From NCBI GenBank assembly GCA_035400585.1, contig DAOMZR010000001.1, forward strand, positions 191,347-255,346: 64,000 nt of DNA, in the 5' to 3' direction. Source of the stretch: a bacterium (GTDB lineage Bacteria; Patescibacteriota; Patescibacteriia; Patescibacteriales; UBA12465). Both the position numbers and the translations under genes were made by a program. Of the stretch, positions 3,424-56,127 are shown one piece after another (position 1 is the first letter of the stretch; each line of letters opens with the position of its first letter). The notes under the pieces are model-generated. The model was not told where the DNA came from. It did no database searches and worked only from the letters and a program-made list of their open reading frames with translations.

Positions 3424-4372
3424 ATATTTTTCTATTGGAGTGAATTTTTCGATGAATATCTCCTAATTGTTTGCTAGTGACATGAGTGTAAACTTGAGTG
3501 GTGGCTATATTTTTATGTCCCAAAAATTCTTGTACTAGTCTTAAATCAACTCCTTGTGACATTAAGTCAGTTGCAAAACTATGTCTTAAAGTGTGTGGTG
3601 TAGCCATGACAGGCAAACCACTTATTTTTATATATTTTTTAACAATTGATTCAATACTTTTAGCCGTTAACCTCCTAGATTCTCCTGTTTTTTCAATTCC
3701 TGGTTTATAATTTATAAATAGGGCAGGGTCAATGTCGCTTCTTTTATCTAAATATTTTTTAATAGCTTTTAAAGCTCTTTCGGAAAAATAAACCGTTCTT
3801 ACTTTTTGTCCCTTACCAACAACACTTATTTCTAAAAAATCAGAACCGCTTTTTATTTTTATTTGATCTCTATTTAAAGCGATAAGCTCTGAAACGCGCA
3901 AACCAGTAGAGAAGAGAGTTTCTAGAATAGATCTGTCTCTTAAACCTTTTATATCGGATTCGTCTGGTGATTCTAATAATCTTTTTAATTGATCTAAATT
4001 TAAAAATTTTATTTCTCGCTCTGATCTGTCCTTGGCCAATTTTATCTTGCTAGGGGGCAGAGACGTGATGTTTTTCTCAACAAAAAATTCTAAAAGAGAC
4101 CTAAGGGCTATTAAATAGTAGTTTTGAGTACTTTTCTTAAGCGGACGATTGTTTAAAGGATTTATATGTCTGGATAGAAACAGGCGATATTTCCAGACGT
4201 GATCTTCGTTTAAGTCTTCTGGTTTTAAATCAGCCAGATTGGATGACTTCAACCACTTAAAAAAGTTATTTAGAAATCTAGAATAATTTTCTTGGGTTTT
4301 AAGGGAAAGTCCTTTTTCAATTTCGCTATAATCAAGAAAGTCCCTTAGATAAGTTATTATTGGTTTGTTCAT
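3422..4372 (-). CDS. Tyrosine site-specific recombinase, XerC/XerD family
   Basis: N-terminal SAM-like core-binding region. C-terminal catalytic box 'HTLRHSFATDLMSQGVDLRLVQEFLGHKNIATTQVYTHV' carries the R..H-x-x-R..Y signature. Confidence 0.85.
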   Translation of the reverse strand: MNKPIITYLRDFLDYSEIEKGLSLKTQENYSRFLNNFFKWLKSSNLADLKPEDLNEDHVWKYRLFLSRHINPLNNRPLKKSTQNYYLIALRSLLEFFVEKNITSLPPSKIKLAKDRSEREIKFLNLDQLKRLLESPDESDIKGLRDRSILETLFSTGLRVSELIALNRDQIKIKSGSDFLEISVVGKGQKVRTVYFSERALKAIKKYLDKRSDIDPALFINYKPGIEKTGESRRLTAKSIESIVKKYIKISGLPVMATPHTLRHSFATDLMSQGVDLRLVQEFLGHKNIATTQVYTHVTSKQLGDIHRKIHSNRKI

Positions 4373-4484
4373 GAGGGGAAAGGTATAAATTATGATTTAA
4401 AGCTAATTATCTTATTATACTATACTTCGCATAATGTATATTAATTAACTTTATATATTAATTATAAAGACAAACAGGCCTTTA

Positions 4485-4640
4485 GTCAAGATATCCTTAA
4501 TAAATAGTCAATCCCATTAATCTTATTTCTGGAACAAACAACAATCCTATTTTTAAAAAAATTAAAAAAACACCTACAACAACTAAACAAAAAATAAAAA
4601 TTGCTAGACCAAAAATAAATTTAAATGTTCCTTCTCCCAT
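4485..4640 (-). CDS. Possible small (51 aa) single-pass membrane protein, not in the ORF track
   Basis: My own translation of the minus strand: MGEGTFKFIFGLAIFIFCLVVVGVFLIFFKNRIVVCSRNKINGIDYLLRIS. It has an ATG start and a hydrophobic core. I see no recognisable homology. Confidence 0.2.
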
Positions 4641-18144: not shown

Positions 18145-19044
18145 ATGGATAGTTTTAAAATCAGTTTAATTTTTGCCTTTTTGGCTATGATTTTTTGGGG
18201 TGTTGGAGATTTTTTAATTCAAAAAACAATTAAGAAAATTGGAGAATTCCAAACTTTATTATTTATTAATCTATTCGCCGGATTAGCACTAATCCCCTTT
18301 GTTTTAAAAGATTTCCCCTTAATTTTTGATTGGCCCAATATTCTGCTATTAATCATAATGACCATAATTGACTTGCTTTATAGTATTTTTTTATTTAAAG
18401 CTTACAACAAGGGAAAATTGTCGGTAATAGAAATTGCTTTAATAGGAGAACTTCCTTTAACAATATTTTTGGGATTAATTTTTTTTGGAGAAAAATTAAG
18501 CTTTATCGAAACTTTTTTAGTTTTACTTATAATCTTGGGAGTATTTTTAATATCCAAAAGTAAAAAAAATTGGAAAGAAAAAATTAAAGAATATTTTTTG
18601 GGGAGAAAATTTGTTTGGGAAAAAGGAATTCTTTTTGTGTTTGTAGCTATTATATTTAGTTCTTTTTATAATTTATTAGTAGCTTTTAATGCAAGGACTA
18701 TCTCAGCTTTTACTTCTATTTGGTTTCCATGGACTCTAAGTTCGATCTTTTTATTAATTTATATTATTTACAAAAAAGGGCTTAAATCTTCTTGTAAAAA
18801 TATTATTAATTATAAAAAATTAATTTTCTTTACTGCTTTAATTGATACCGCTGCCTGGATTTTTTATGCTCTAGCTACACAAAAAGAAGAGCTTTCGATT
18901 ATAACGGCTATAGTTGCTGGATATGCCGTTATTGCTATGATTTTAGACATTAAAATAAACAAACAAAAAATTGGAAATTGGCAATATTTAGGTGCTTTTT
19001 TTGTGTTTGTTGGTGTTATTATTATTAGTTTTATTACTAACTGA
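18145..19044 (+). CDS. EamA/DMT-superfamily transporter (10 TM)
   Basis: Polytopic hydrophobic protein of 299 aa with two EamA-like halves, e.g. 'FLAMIFWGVGDFLIQK'. Confidence 0.7.
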   Translation: MDSFKISLIFAFLAMIFWGVGDFLIQKTIKKIGEFQTLLFINLFAGLALIPFVLKDFPLIFDWPNILLLIIMTIIDLLYSIFLFKAYNKGKLSVIEIALIGELPLTIFLGLIFFGEKLSFIETFLVLLIILGVFLISKSKKNWKEKIKEYFLGRKFVWEKGILFVFVAIIFSSFYNLLVAFNARTISAFTSIWFPWTLSSIFLLIYIIYKKGLKSSCKNIINYKKLIFFTALIDTAAWIFYALATQKEELSIITAIVAGYAVIAMILDIKINKQKIGNWQYLGAFFVFVGVIIISFITN

Positions 19045-19065
19045 TACCCCCCCCTTCGCTCGCAT

Positions 19066-19092
19066 CAAAAAACACCCGAAAGGGTGTTTTTT
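19066..19092. terminator. Bidirectional rho-independent terminator
   Basis: 'aaaaaacaccc-gaaa-gggtgtttttt': 6-bp GC-rich stem, GAAA loop, A-run upstream and T-run downstream. It follows the EamA stop and a C8 tract (19047-19054). Confidence 0.75.
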
Positions 19093-19272
19093 CTCGCTCG
19101 CTCGGGGACTAGGATTCGGTCACGGTCGCTAAACCTCTTTCTCTCGCTACGCTCAATCACTCGCTAAGCGCCCCGACCCGGCCTCGCCTGTGCTCATTTC
19201 ATTCGCACATGGCTCCGGCTTTCTCATCCTAGACACGAAGTGCGCAGGCACTTCGCTTCCCCTCACTCATTC
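19093..19272. ncRNA. Unclassified GC-rich structured element with a tRNA-like 3' end (candidate ncRNA; orientation uncertain, minus strand favoured)
   Basis: About 59% G+C by hand count, against ~25-35% in the flanks, with no ORF. Minus-strand helices: GGGGA/UCCCC, CUAGGAU/AUCCUAG, hairpin CGAAGUGC-CUGC-GCACUUCG (19236-19255), CCGG-A-GCC-A-UGUGC...GCACA-GGC-GAGG-CCGG and GGUCG/CGACC. The 3' end, 'CGAAUCCUAGUCCCCGAG', equals the tRNA-Gln T-loop/acceptor 3' strand. Confidence 0.35.
19098..19118. repeat. 21-bp exact direct repeat, copy 1 (duplicate of the tRNA-Gln 3' end)
   Basis: 'tcgctcggggactaggattcg' is identical to 19305-19325. Confidence 0.9.
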
Positions 19273-19301
19273 AAAAAATCCAGCTTACGCTGGATTTTTT
19301 T
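19273..19301. terminator. Bidirectional rho-independent terminator immediately downstream of tRNA-Gln
   Basis: 'aaaaaatccagc-ttac-gctggattttttt'. Confidence 0.75.
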
Positions 19302-19304
19302 CAT

Positions 19305-19325
19305 TCGCTCGGGGACTAGGATTCG
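19305..19325. repeat. 21-bp exact direct repeat, copy 2 (overlaps the genuine tRNA-Gln 3' end)
   Basis: 'tcgctcggggactaggattcg' is identical to 19098-19118. Confidence 0.9.
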
Positions 19326-19378
19326 AACCCAGATAAACAGGACCAGAACCTGTTGTCCTACCATTAGACGATCCCCGA
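19308..19378 (-). tRNA. tRNA-Gln (anticodon CUG), 71 nt, CCA not encoded
   Basis: Hand-folded cloverleaf: acceptor UCGGGGA/UCCCCGA (the U1-A72 pair is typical of bacterial tRNA-Gln) and a D arm GUC..GAC. The anticodon arm is ACAGG-UUCUGGU-CCUGU. The T arm is CUGGG-UUCGAAU-CCUAG, and the discriminator is G. Confidence 0.9.
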
Positions 19379-19428
19379 ATAATTTATATAAGAATTTTAT
19401 AACACTAAATTATTTTTTTTTCAAGCAA

Positions 19429-19456
19429 ATAAAAAAGCTCCTTTTTGTAGGAGCTT
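19429..19456 (-). terminator. Rho-independent terminator after the helical-repeat protein gene
   Basis: Minus strand: AAGCUCCU-ACAAAA-AGGAGCUU followed by a U-run. Confidence 0.65.
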
Positions 19457-19474
19457 GTTAATCTTGTGATTTTA

Positions 19475-55907: not shown

Positions 55908-56017
55908 AATAAATAAGAATTTTTATTCATATATTAGCTATTATATCATAATTTTGTTGTATTTAATAGTTAATGTAAATATATTTTTTACAGAACTCGG
56001 ATTCGAACTAAAATATA

Positions 56018-56047
56018 CAAAAAACACCTGTAAATACAGATGTTTTT
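56018..56047 (-). terminator. Rho-independent terminator downstream of tRNA-Asn
   Basis: Minus strand: ACAUCUGU-AUUU-ACAGGUGU + UUUUUUG. Confidence 0.65.
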
Positions 56048-56055
56048 GAGCGTTG

Positions 56056-56127
56056 CTCCGAGGGTGGGATTCGAACCCACGACCAATTGATTAACAGTCA
56101 ACTGCGCTACCGCTGCGCTACCTCGGA
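56056..56127 (-). tRNA. tRNA-Asn (anticodon GUU), 72 nt, CCA not encoded
   Basis: Hand-folded cloverleaf: acceptor UCCGAGG/CCUCGGA and a D arm GCGC-AGCGGUA-GCGC. The anticodon arm is GUUGA-CUGUUAA-UCAAU. The T arm is GUGGG-UUCGAAU-CCCAC, and the discriminator is G. Confidence 0.9.

Follow-up and report, generated by a model that had tools for sequence, protein, structure and literature searches.

What kind of element is a short G+C-rich stretch that encodes no plausible protein, is predicted to fold strongly and sits directly behind a transfer RNA (tRNA) gene whose 3' end it repeats? The question is raised by a locus in a bacterial genome of the Patescibacteriota (NCBI GenBank assembly GCA_035400585.1, contig DAOMZR010000001.1), from which a stretch of 64,000 nucleotides (nt), here called the window, was analysed. 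The element, which we call module X, occupies positions ~19098-19304 on the minus strand of the window, between the gene for an EamA protein and a gene for tRNA-Gln(CUG). An earlier sequence-only reading of the window had seen in it a stable, tRNA-Gln-like non-coding RNA or, alternatively, the scar of a mobile element that was almost entirely deleted. Here we find that X is an intact member of an apparently undescribed, conserved family of folded non-coding modules of ~200 base pairs (bp) in Patescibacteria, with arms that match the 3' end of a tRNA and with a place at the junctions of strain-variable cassette arrays. We read it, tentatively, as an attachment-site module that occupies and duplicates a landing site at the end of a tRNA gene, and that would be served by an enzyme encoded elsewhere.

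Family and distribution

More than 40 distinct copies of the module (roughly 45) were found across Patescibacteria genomes and metagenomes; the related loci that were fetched are denoted by L-numbers. A 22-mer from the core of the module leads to 18 loci in species-representative genomes, most of which are titled Patescibacteria, Parcubacteria or Falkowbacteria, and a 21-mer from the core leads to 30 metagenome loci. Several third-party bins among the 22-mer loci are titled Gammaproteobacteria, and one each Acholeplasmataceae, Planctomycetota and Peptococcaceae; these titles are suspected to be wrong. With a covariance model built on 34 distinct copies, complete copies score 83-151 bits, and the window has a single match, at 19100-19239, with 113.8 bits. 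The core is ~105 nt long and near-invariant across species of 30-45% G+C.

About 30 of the ~45 distinct copies lie 38-70 nt (in one case 103 nt) 3' of a co-oriented tRNA gene, and the tRNAs that precede modules are Gln-CUG/UUG, Ala-GGC/UGC, Ser-GGA/UGA/CGA/GCU, Pro-GGG and Asp-GUC. A decaying duplicate of tRNA-Gln, which the sequence-only reading had considered, does not fit this distribution: the complete core stands behind at least five kinds of tRNA, and each time the arms are matched anew to the local tRNA. The gene order of the window is shared with L036 ('Patescibacteria group bacterium'), and aligned segments of the locus are 82-87% identical in DNA to L028 ('Candidatus Parcubacteria bacterium'). 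Further copies, with 87-89% identity, occur in the strain variant L013, whose contigs share neighbour genes with the window. In three species (L032, L033, L045) X is kept at the orthologous position, and when one genome carries copies at different tRNAs, their cores differ by ~2 nt (L030/L040 and L035/L037).

Parts of the module in the window

The G+C content of 19093-19272, counted by hand in the sequence-only reading, is 106 of 180 nt (58.9%) also in our recount, and the mean of the 64-kilobase (kb) window is 29.6%. This region is the top G+C peak of the window (0.61 in 120-nt windows), about five standard deviations (of 6.3%) above the mean. The 21-bp exact direct repeat that had been noticed between 19098-19118 and 19305-19325 is likewise there, and it consists of the last 18 nt of tRNA-Gln and 3 nt of trailer; the similarity between the two copies stretches to 31 nt at 90% identity. 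That the element lacks a plausible open reading frame holds as well, since the only frame of at least 60 amino acids is a spurious one of 73, starting with GTG, at 19240-19461, which crosses the tRNA. Read along the minus strand, the parts are as follows.

19307-19378, minus: tRNA-Gln(CUG), called by ARAGORN and matched by the Rfam tRNA model with 58 bits; no encoded CCA; its 3' part supplies the left repeat copy
19305-19325, minus: repeat copy 1 ('a'), from C56 in the T-loop of the tRNA to the discriminator base, with 3 nt of trailer (CGAATCCTAGTCCCCGAGCGA)
19273-19301, minus: left arm of the module, an A-run, hairpin and U-run, terminator-like and similar to the hairpin after the second repeat copy
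19263-19272, minus: leader GAAUGAGUGA, conserved as GAAUGAG(Y)G(A) in type-1 copies
19258-19262, minus: 5' strand of helix P1b, GGGGA, which in the predicted fold pairs with UCCCC (acceptor 3' strand) at 19102-19106
19235-19256, minus: hairpin H with the conserved loop CCUGCG, exactly at the acceptor/T-stem complement junction
19226-19232, minus: 5' arm, CUAGGAU, of helix P1a, the reverse complement of the T-loop/T-stem 3' part of the repeat
19119-19225, minus: conserved core, with a GAAA junction, P2 (GCC/GGC base and variable hairpin) and P3
within the core, minus: P3 of the window copy, GGUCG.GGCGCU.AGC / GCU.AGCG.CC.UGACC, with bulges, a U-U mismatch and a GA-rich tip
19098-19118, minus: repeat copy 2, the 3' arm, an exact copy of the tRNA from C56 to +3, which gives the 3' strands of P1a and P1b
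19067-19092, minus: second A-run, hairpin and U-run (CACCC-UUUC-GGGUG), kept beside the cassette end in the module-less strain L078
19047-19066, minus: GAUGCGAGCGAA and G8, with the adjoining hairpin a truncated left arm of a further module copy

The two hairpins on either side of the element had been taken for bidirectional terminators private to it. The hairpin structures are present, and cmscan aligns them to the RNAI terminator hairpin on both strands; a simple terminator scan of the window missed them, since their T-run forms part of the stem. They are inherited parts of the repeat architecture rather than private insulators. The DNA that comes after X in the window (CGAGCGAG, hairpin, GAUGCGAGCGAA and G8) is almost identical to the left arm of a complete, tRNA-Asn-armed module in L046, which reads ...GTGTTTTTTGATGCGAGCGGAGAGGGA-H..., and the hairpin at 19067-19092 with GATGCGAGCGAA and G8 (together 19047-19092) has its homologue in the left arm of a different copy of the module (cf. 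L046). From this we infer that a truncated further copy of the module follows X. The C8 run at 19047-19054 of the forward strand, which the sequence-only reading had pointed out, belongs to this truncated left arm and would be the remnant of that copy's acceptor-complement strand. Remnants with the left arm only are also found behind complete copies in L048 and L029, and partial tandem copies behind complete ones in L059 and L072.

Arms that match the tRNA

The order of the parts is constant: tRNA, hairpin H, spacer, 5' arm, core, 3' arm and second terminator-like hairpin. The loop of H, (A/C)CUGC(G/U), is conserved across loci at different tRNAs, and H is often flanked by A- and U-runs in a terminator-like manner; the short conserved spacer is either UGUUGA or GAAUGAG. 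In the tRNA-adjacent copies where it can be measured, the 3' arm is a copy of the local tRNA that starts at C56 in the T-loop. The resulting direct repeat is usually 17-25 nt long and ends 0-6 nt beyond the tRNA, in genomic trailer and not in CCA. In the 5' arm, the first 7-14 nt of the 3' tRNA copy return as their reverse complement. To exemplify, the T-loops CAAGU, CAAUU and CGAGU occur with the 5' arms ACUUG, AAUUG and CUCGG, and from this it follows that the 5' arm is the complement of the 3' arm and not a copy of the tRNA's own T-arm.

Type-1 copies, which include those of the window, L013, L028, L036, L041, L043 and L031, have, 5' of H, a second short strand whose partner is the acceptor 3' strand. 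The second strand reads GGGGA in the window, GGAGAGA (with UCUCUCC) in L043 and GGAGGAGA (with UCUCCUCC) in L041. It places H at the boundary between T-stem and acceptor, where H is found exactly in Gln, Ser and Pro contexts, and the result resembles the acceptor/T-stem stack of a tRNA in which the core replaces the T-loop. An insertion in place of the T-loop, as proposed in the sequence-only reading, is therefore there, with a length of ~105 nt.

The match between arms and tRNA has informative departures. In L075 the module behind an intact tRNA-Ser(UGA) has the arms of a different tRNA-Ser. Among the modules of L013, the one called X_A has hybrid arms, with a 5' arm as it occurs with the tRNA-Gln of L062 and a 3' arm of the window type, and in X_B both arms are of the L062 type.

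When tRNA and module are considered as one co-transcript, as in L033:170-460 (minus) and by extension in such co-transcripts generally, the 5' arm can pair either with the 3' arm of the module or with the 3' part of the upstream tRNA. The latter pairing, across H, forms a palindrome of ~45 bp, and the predicted minimum-energy fold of the co-transcript has this swapped pairing, with the tRNA disrupted.

Fold and covariation

The minus strand of the element has a predicted folding energy of -70.5 kcal/mol (z = -4.2; 0 of 200 shuffles as good), and the plus strand one of -54.5 kcal/mol (z = -2.9). All the minus-strand helices that had been drawn by hand are present in the predicted fold, i.e., GGGGA/UCCCC, CUAGGAU/AUCCUAG, the hairpin with the CCUGCG loop, CCGG...CCGG and GGUCG/UGACC.

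Conservation of these helices among relatives, to which the sequence-only reading had looked for a decision, was evaluated in a model-based alignment of 37 distinct copies. Here 93% of the cells are paired when in register, compared with 33-40% when the partner is slid, and 12 pairs have changes on both sides, counts that lean towards structure because the alignment is fitted to the model; none of 500 shuffles reaches the observed covariation score. In the closing helix, 8 of 11 pairs are changed on both sides, as in CAGGGAU/AUCCCUG of copy B in L013, and this covariation in part restates that the arms follow the tRNA. The tips of P2 fold as hairpins in 23 of 23 distinct versions, which range from GGC-GUA-GCC to a 41-nt stem-loop. 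The tips of P3 are of two kinds: hairpins with compensatory changes (CUUGC/GCAAG, UUUGC/GCAAA, UCCGC/GCGGG, UUCAC/GUGAA and others), and GA-rich tips as in the window. The long P3 helix itself, GGUCG-G-GGCGCU-U-AGC with GCU-U-AGCG-A-CC-G-UGACC, is invariant. Invariance of its 5' strand is partly a matter of ascertainment, because the search strings lie in it; the 3' strand, which is in no search string, is almost invariant too. G-U pairs (G84-U158 and others) occur exclusively in the tRNA sense. Judged from these alignments, the fold is under selection, and its three-way junction appears to be kept on the strand that carries the tRNA sense.

In L036 (6290-6650, minus) a module copy has an insertion of ~125 nt in the tip of P3, and this insertion holds a second, partial core start (GGACGAGAAAGCCGGAGCC...). 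The variable tip may therefore tolerate, or attract, nested insertions.

The pentamer AGCGA occurs eight times in the 291 nt of the sense strand at 19040-19330 (minus) of the window and never in the antisense strand; dinucleotide shuffles give 1.07 +/- 1.0. Its recurrence suggests a repeated, putative protein-binding motif.

Strain variation and cassette arrays

When loci are grouped by their flanking genes, whose proteins are 94-100% identical, three types of allele are found within one species. In the first, which occurs in the window, L001, L002, L010-L012 and L079, the order is tRNA-Gln, X, second hairpin, EamA; the copy of X is identical to that of the window in L003, L079 and other samples. 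In the second, found in L078 (93.6 kb), the order is tRNA-Gln, two-gene cassette, second hairpin, EamA remnant. The covariance model finds no X in L078, a neighbouring protein of which is 96% identical, and the right end of its cassette, AGTTCGAACATCGTCCGCGACCCCGAG, abuts the sequence that in the window comes after X. In the third, seen in L013 and L003 from one sample, cassettes and modules alternate: tRNA-Gln, cassette 1, X_A, cassette 2, X_B, cassette 3 and so on, up to a far end where the last cassette is followed by an X identical to that of the window, and then by EamA. Cassette 2 of L013 encodes a PNPOx-like and a NUDIX protein, and cassette 3 a methyltransferase and DpnII. Overall, the accessory content of the cassettes is methyltransferase with DpnII, Tsp45I with methyltransferase, NUDIX and PNPOx-like; their genes are mostly co-oriented with the tRNA, and restriction-modification pairs occur in two unrelated loci.

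The same grammar is found at tRNA-Gln and tRNA-Ser in L036, L052, L056 and L039, the last of which is the occupied member of a pair at tRNA-Ser(GCU) with the 'empty' L055. In L076, a relative with 75% identity, other DNA follows tRNA-Gln and there is no X. Many contigs of the species end exactly at the site. The sequence-only reading had proposed to look in relatives for mobile DNA between such repeats, and such DNA is what these arrays contain. Its description of the repeat as an attL/attR-type scar was right in kind, since the repeat is of attachment (att) type and runs from C56 to 3 nt past the tRNA end; the 'almost entirely deleted' element that was to have left the scar does not fit a module that is complete.

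The boundaries of the units are exact. A tRNA-type 3' end (...CCCCGAG|C...) directly precedes every inserted unit, be it X or a cassette, and each unit also closes with such an end. Cassettes are always bounded by a tRNA-type end on one side and, on the other, by the trailer and hairpin that open either an X or the original downstream DNA, and their boundaries read ...CCCCGAG|C... or ...CTCCGC(G/A)|.... Since units are always inserted at a junction between tRNA end and trailer, this junction behaves as an attachment site. The same cassette start is found behind different tRNAs and modules.

In L028, tRNA-Gln and X are joined, directly after CCCCGAG|C, to a block that in the window stands behind tRNA-Asn, with 81.6% identity over 538 nt. 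In the window this block (CAACGCTC, terminator, TTTAGTTCGAATCCGAGTTCTG onwards) lies at 55960-56073 (minus), 3' of tRNA-Asn at 56055-56127, and it follows X at tRNA-Gln in both L028 and L073. The breakpoint, exactly after GAG|C, points to a rearrangement between two tRNA ends. The hairpin that comes after the 3' arm in L033 (192-334) directly follows the tRNA, before the module, in the syntenic L045 (2988-3124), a displacement that suggests turnover or shuffling of units within the site. A T-loop-like GGTTCGAA is seen 45-140 nt past the end of the tRNA or module in L078, L013, L016, L076 and L028.

Right ends of the cassettes

The cassettes have a right end of their own, which was compared in five tRNA contexts (Gln, Ser-CGA type, Ser-GCU, Ser-GGA and Ala-UGC). 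It begins with a T-loop-like GTTCNAA(C), ends in the last 5-8 nt of the tRNA and exceeds the real tRNA part by exactly 5 nt in all five contexts. The additional nucleotides are CATCG, CTTCG, CTACG, TATAG or ATTGG, and a T-stem 3'/acceptor-like stretch comes after them. In four of the five contexts, 6-9 of the inner ten positions are identical to the tRNA. The motif is located as follows.

L013:3240-3266 and 4488-4514; L003; L046; L052; L034/L070; L039; L035; L064: cassette right-end motif
Cassette site: carries GTTCNAAC...tRNA-end

In large serine integrases, the distance between the crossover and the outer zinc-ribbon motif is 5 bp greater in attP than in attB (PMC3783163). The likeness between this spacing and the 5 nt of the cassette ends may serve as a lead and is not put forward as a finding. 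A mirrored motif on the other half-site occurs in L056 only, and the right half-sites carry no consistent inverted motif.

L056 also has, at 640-1300, a complete cassette of 650 bp with a single NUDIX-like open reading frame on the opposite strand and with terminal inverted repeats, ACGTGAACTTTGGAAC ... GTTCCAACTACGT, at its very ends. Such terminal inverted repeats were not seen in the other cassettes checked, i.e., those of L052 and the Gln cassettes.

Other cores between the same arms

Different GA-rich structured cores were found behind three further tRNAs, at the following places.

L057:5711-5925, plus: core behind tRNA-Gly(UCC), unrelated in sequence to the core of X
L067:5960-6166, minus: core behind tRNA-Ala(CGC), unrelated in sequence to the core of X
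L048:1-106, minus: core behind tRNA-Ser(UGA), unrelated in sequence to the core of X

Each of them is preceded, in this order, by the tRNA, a hairpin, a spacer and a strand complementary to the T-loop/T-stem 3' part. In L057 and L067 the core is followed by a repeat of the tRNA 3' end, and L048 reaches the end of its contig before that point. The cores of L057 and L067, which were tested, have no match in Rfam beyond terminator-like noise. When unrelated cores have the same arms, the layout of the arms is more general than the core of X. There is also a mini version of ~40 nt, in L031 behind tRNA-Pro(CGG) (3754-3826, minus), where a small hairpin is followed by a copy of the tRNA-Pro 3' end.

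Searches for known RNAs, mobile elements and recombinases

Does X belong to something already known? At the Rfam 15 gathering thresholds, only the two tRNAs of the whole window pass, and no family such as tmRNA, 6S, SRP, RNase P or Y RNA/YrlA does. At E <= 10, in the region 18950-19450, the core has only a partial match of 15.4 bits to the Bacteroidales small signal recognition particle RNA (gathering threshold 55.2), and the other weak matches are on the tRNA, the flanking hairpins or the 3' end of the EamA gene. ARAGORN finds no transfer-messenger RNA (tmRNA) and no extra tRNA. With these checks run, the earlier statement that the element fits no known RNA family stands. A tRNA gene or pseudogene at 19093-19272 was considered and rejected, as neither ARAGORN nor Rfam calls a tRNA there; the tRNA-derived sequence in the element is limited to the 3' strands of acceptor and T-stem and to one half of the T-loop.

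A scan of IMG/VR with two strings from the core gave, for an 18-mer, nine chance matches in unrelated contigs of 41-67% G+C and, for the other string, none. The INPHARED phages and PLSDB plasmids have no match by blastn, and literature searches with core sequence strings and keywords found no description of the module. All-versus-all clustering of the open reading frames that neighbour the module across loci gave no shared family besides spurious frames over the element itself. Pfam searches with 29 selected neighbours and with 125 non-redundant neighbours gave only housekeeping or accessory families among those listed, and for the 125 neighbours the 25 most frequent families were all of the housekeeping kind. 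When XerD, lambda Int and gamma-delta resolvase were run with phmmer against the fetched loci (hundreds of kb), there was no match, and no serine recombinase (resolvase-domain) match was obtained in any locus or in the window. The sole tyrosine-recombinase-like match is a XerD-like open reading frame in the window, at 3425-4396 (minus), 15 kb away, with a phmmer E of 1.5e-37. It is probably the chromosome-dimer resolvase, and it is the only candidate enzyme in the window.

Three ways in which the arms could have arisen were tried and rejected. A target-site duplication as the source of the 3' arm disagrees with L075, where arms of another tRNA-Ser are kept behind an intact tRNA-Ser(UGA). A mobile intron in a T-loop copy disagrees with loci that have non-palindromic T-loops, where the 5' arm is the complement of the 3' arm and not the 5' half of the T-loop. 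A retroelement-like copy of a mature tRNA disagrees with the trailer bases of the repeat, which are genomic and do not spell CCA.

Interpretation

What, then, would such a module do? From left to right, X consists of trailer with terminator-like hairpin, leader, H, 5' arm, ~105-nt core and a copy of the tRNA from C56 to slightly beyond its end. Its left end resembles the right half-site of the junction between tRNA end and trailer, and its right end resembles the left half-site, so that insertion of X recreates a complete junction on each side. As cassettes are found at exactly such junctions, X would multiply the landing site and give rise to the junctions of strain-variable arrays, with recombination carried out by an enzyme encoded elsewhere. 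This is the reading that we tentatively favour. The junctions would then be the recombination sites of one dedicated enzyme, and the fold would be recognised by that enzyme or by a cofactor. The fold, together with a closing helix that matches the target, indicates that the module is read as a folded single strand. Whether this strand would be RNA or DNA is nearly balanced: the tRNA-like placement of H favours RNA, and the upstream terminator-like hairpin and the promoterless scan favour single-stranded DNA. We lean slightly towards a tRNA-like transcript as the active form.

Several observations weigh against this reading. Neither Pfam nor phmmer finds a recombinase, transposase or reverse transcriptase near any copy. 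No excised circle was found, and no pair of occupied and empty sites for X in an otherwise identical background, so that X could be gained and lost by homologous recombination between the repeats and not in a site-specific manner. The promoter scan gave nothing convincing upstream of the core, which together with the preceding terminator-like hairpin speaks against efficient transcription. The invariance of the P3 5' strand is in part ascertained, as said above. Finally, the reading offers no explanation for how both arms come to match a new tRNA, and in L075 the arms are those of a tRNA-Ser other than the neighbouring one.

Consider, in comparison, a housekeeping-type, tRNA-like non-coding RNA that is transcribed together with the tRNA or behind it, is cut to size at its acceptor/T-stem mimic by RNase P and RNase Z, and may act as a tRNA decoy or sequester a protein through its AGCGA motifs; cassettes would then be present merely because tRNA 3' ends are general hot spots of integration. 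The sequence-only reading came close to this, and a conserved, structured non-coding unit on the tRNA strand, closed by helices of the T-stem and acceptor 3' strand, is what stands of its proposal once the private terminators are removed. The sense-strand fold with its G-U pairs and strong covariation, the coaxial tRNA-like helix implied by the position of H in type-1 copies in Gln, Ser and Pro contexts, the excess of AGCGA on the sense strand only and the retention of X at the orthologous position in L032, L033 and L045 all agree with such an RNA. However, the repeat contains trailer bases that are not part of the tRNA and so points to an origin at the DNA level, X is present or absent among near-identical strains and multiplied within arrays, a terminator-like hairpin precedes the core with no promoter seen, and at least two further, unrelated cores with the same arms suggest a logic of insertion over the function of one RNA. 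We regard it as unlikely. Rather unlikely, in our estimate, is an integration programmed by nucleic acid, where both arms specify the tRNA end to a recombinase encoded in trans and where changed arms retarget the module, in RNA form like the bridge RNAs of IS110 elements, in DNA form through a closing helix that rebuilds the target duplex as in integron attC or the attP of CTX phage. It would account for nearly identical cores whose arms are fitted to the local tRNA, with at least five types of tRNA represented, and for copies at different tRNAs of one genome that differ by ~2 nt in the core, although the latter similarity could come from gene conversion. The 5' arm is internal to the module and can therefore not be created by recombination alone, and the conserved, bulged P3 with its variable tip resembles a protein-recognition hairpin. 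Yet no recombinase of the IS110, integron or any other type is linked to the module, the arms are complementary to each other, unlike the guide segments of bridge RNAs, and the module of L075 stands behind a non-cognate tRNA-Ser.

An explanation without any dedicated enzyme is that the module is a portable homology anchor, where core and tRNA serve as homology arms for RecA-dependent swapping, within and between species, after uptake of DNA. It takes the lack of a nearby recombinase at face value, and the almost invariant core across species of 30-45% G+C, the hybrid arms of X_A, the contig breaks and mosaic arrays, and the recurrence of one cassette start behind different tRNAs and modules are what such swapping would give. 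But it leaves the conserved fold, the 5' arm and hairpin H unexplained, as it does the cassette boundaries at the same base after the tRNA end and the right ends that are always 5 nt longer, and we consider it quite unlikely. That X is an inert remnant, a decaying tRNA-Gln duplicate or the scar of a deleted island with no selected function, is highly improbable: a 21-bp repeat with remnant-like sequence around it, for instance the truncated left arm at 19047-19092, is of the kind one would expect, but more than 40 distinct complete copies with near-invariant core and compensatory changes, a copy identical to that of the window in L003, L079 and other samples, and the same core behind unrelated tRNAs are not. 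Returning to the attachment-site reading, one may extend it to a bolder proposal, in which the module is the nucleic-acid component of a categorically new, programmable system for cassette capture directed to tRNA ends. The conserved three-way junction would then recruit a recombinase in trans, possibly a housekeeping or tRNA-processing enzyme, while the closing helix, identical in sequence to the target duplex, would select the tRNA 3' end to be used, and rewriting of the arms would retarget the module. We hold this extension to be possible and on balance unlikely.

Comparison with known systems

In its working, the module is nearest to the attC sites of integrons or to integrase-less, att-flanked elements at tRNA genes, and it fails the defining tests of each. 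As with attC sites, e.g., the repeats of Vibrio chromosomal integrons, repeated structured imperfect palindromes separate accessory cassettes that are mostly co-oriented (L013, L036), strand-specific folding is implied, a bulged helix is conserved while the terminal structure varies, and a site may be free of cassettes. Unlike in integrons, no intI adjoins the array, none of the array loci has a tyrosine recombinase, a tRNA 3' end takes the place of attI as the anchor, and the arms reproduce tRNA sequence. The site has a length of ~200 bp, of which ~105 nt are a core of invariant sequence, the boundaries read ...GAG|C and not G|TTRRRY, and the cassettes have a different right end of their own and a terminator-like hairpin at their start.

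Elements with att sites in tRNA genes share with X the direct repeat that runs from the T-loop to past the 3' end, the intact tRNA and the stacking of several units, and cis-mobilizable elements (CIMEs) without integrase share with it att repeats that flank units lacking an integrase of their own. Comparators of this kind, integrase-less or located at tRNA sites, are the CIMEs of Streptococcus and the tycheposon islands of Prochlorococcus; sublocations of attachment within tRNA genes were reportedly described by Williams in 2002. Unlike these elements, X is only ~200 bp long, non-coding and conserved over many species and tRNAs, an inverted repeat copy lies inside it, its RNA-like fold covaries, and neither an autonomous integrase-bearing relative nor an integrase inside the element was met. 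With the att sites of large serine integrases a possible likeness lies in the cassette right-end motif, 5 bp further out than the real T-loop, on the left half-sites in five of five contexts. The differences lie in the right half-sites, where L056 alone has the motif, and in the ends of X, which are attB-like and not attP-like.

The bridge RNA or seekRNA of IS110/IS1111 elements is also a structured non-coding unit of ~150-200 nt, with variable segments that match the target on a conserved scaffold. However, Pfam finds no DEDD/Tnp recombinase among the neighbours of X, no ends of an insertion sequence were seen, the variable segments of X pair with each other and cover the same stretch of target, and X stands solo in the chromosome. 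The tRNA-like domain of tmRNA and the Y RNA/YrlA resemble X in the acceptor-like stem on a T-stem-like helix, the 3' end identical to tRNA and the length of 150-200 nt; X differs in that it has no T-loop, no mimic of the D-arm and no tag reading frame, and in that its arms vary with the neighbouring tRNA. We class the module among structured recombination-site modules of cassette arrays at tRNA genes, with a sequence that is apparently previously undescribed.

The genomes of Patescibacteria are tiny, with few recognised mobile elements, and genetic tools for these bacteria are lacking. If the attachment-site reading is true, a module of ~200 bp that multiplies landing sites would explain exchange of accessory genes among them, including restriction-modification systems and NUDIX hydrolases, and would place another kind of cassette array next to integrons. 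Should the arms indeed determine the target, the module would be a small integration site that is naturally reprogrammable, and if the bolder capture-system proposal holds, at least three unrelated cores with a shared arm logic would point to a general, undescribed, integron-like way of building arrays in reduced genomes. At minimum, X represents a new structured element of more than 40 members with strong covariation, which merits an Rfam covariance model and annotation in Patescibacteria, where it is currently a source of contig breaks and spurious open reading frames.

Further observations

The genes of the window that flank the array encode a 300-amino-acid protein without Pfam match, LysRS and EamA. 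In L035 (3890-3975) and L037 (6321-6410), the 3' arm of a family-1 module is broken after GAATCCCG by a piece of ~65 nt (UGGACAAGUGAGC-hairpin-GCGAUAA). This piece equals the 3' module of a second core family, and the remaining end of the tRNA-Ser comes after it. The pentamer AGCGA is frequent in the other core families too.

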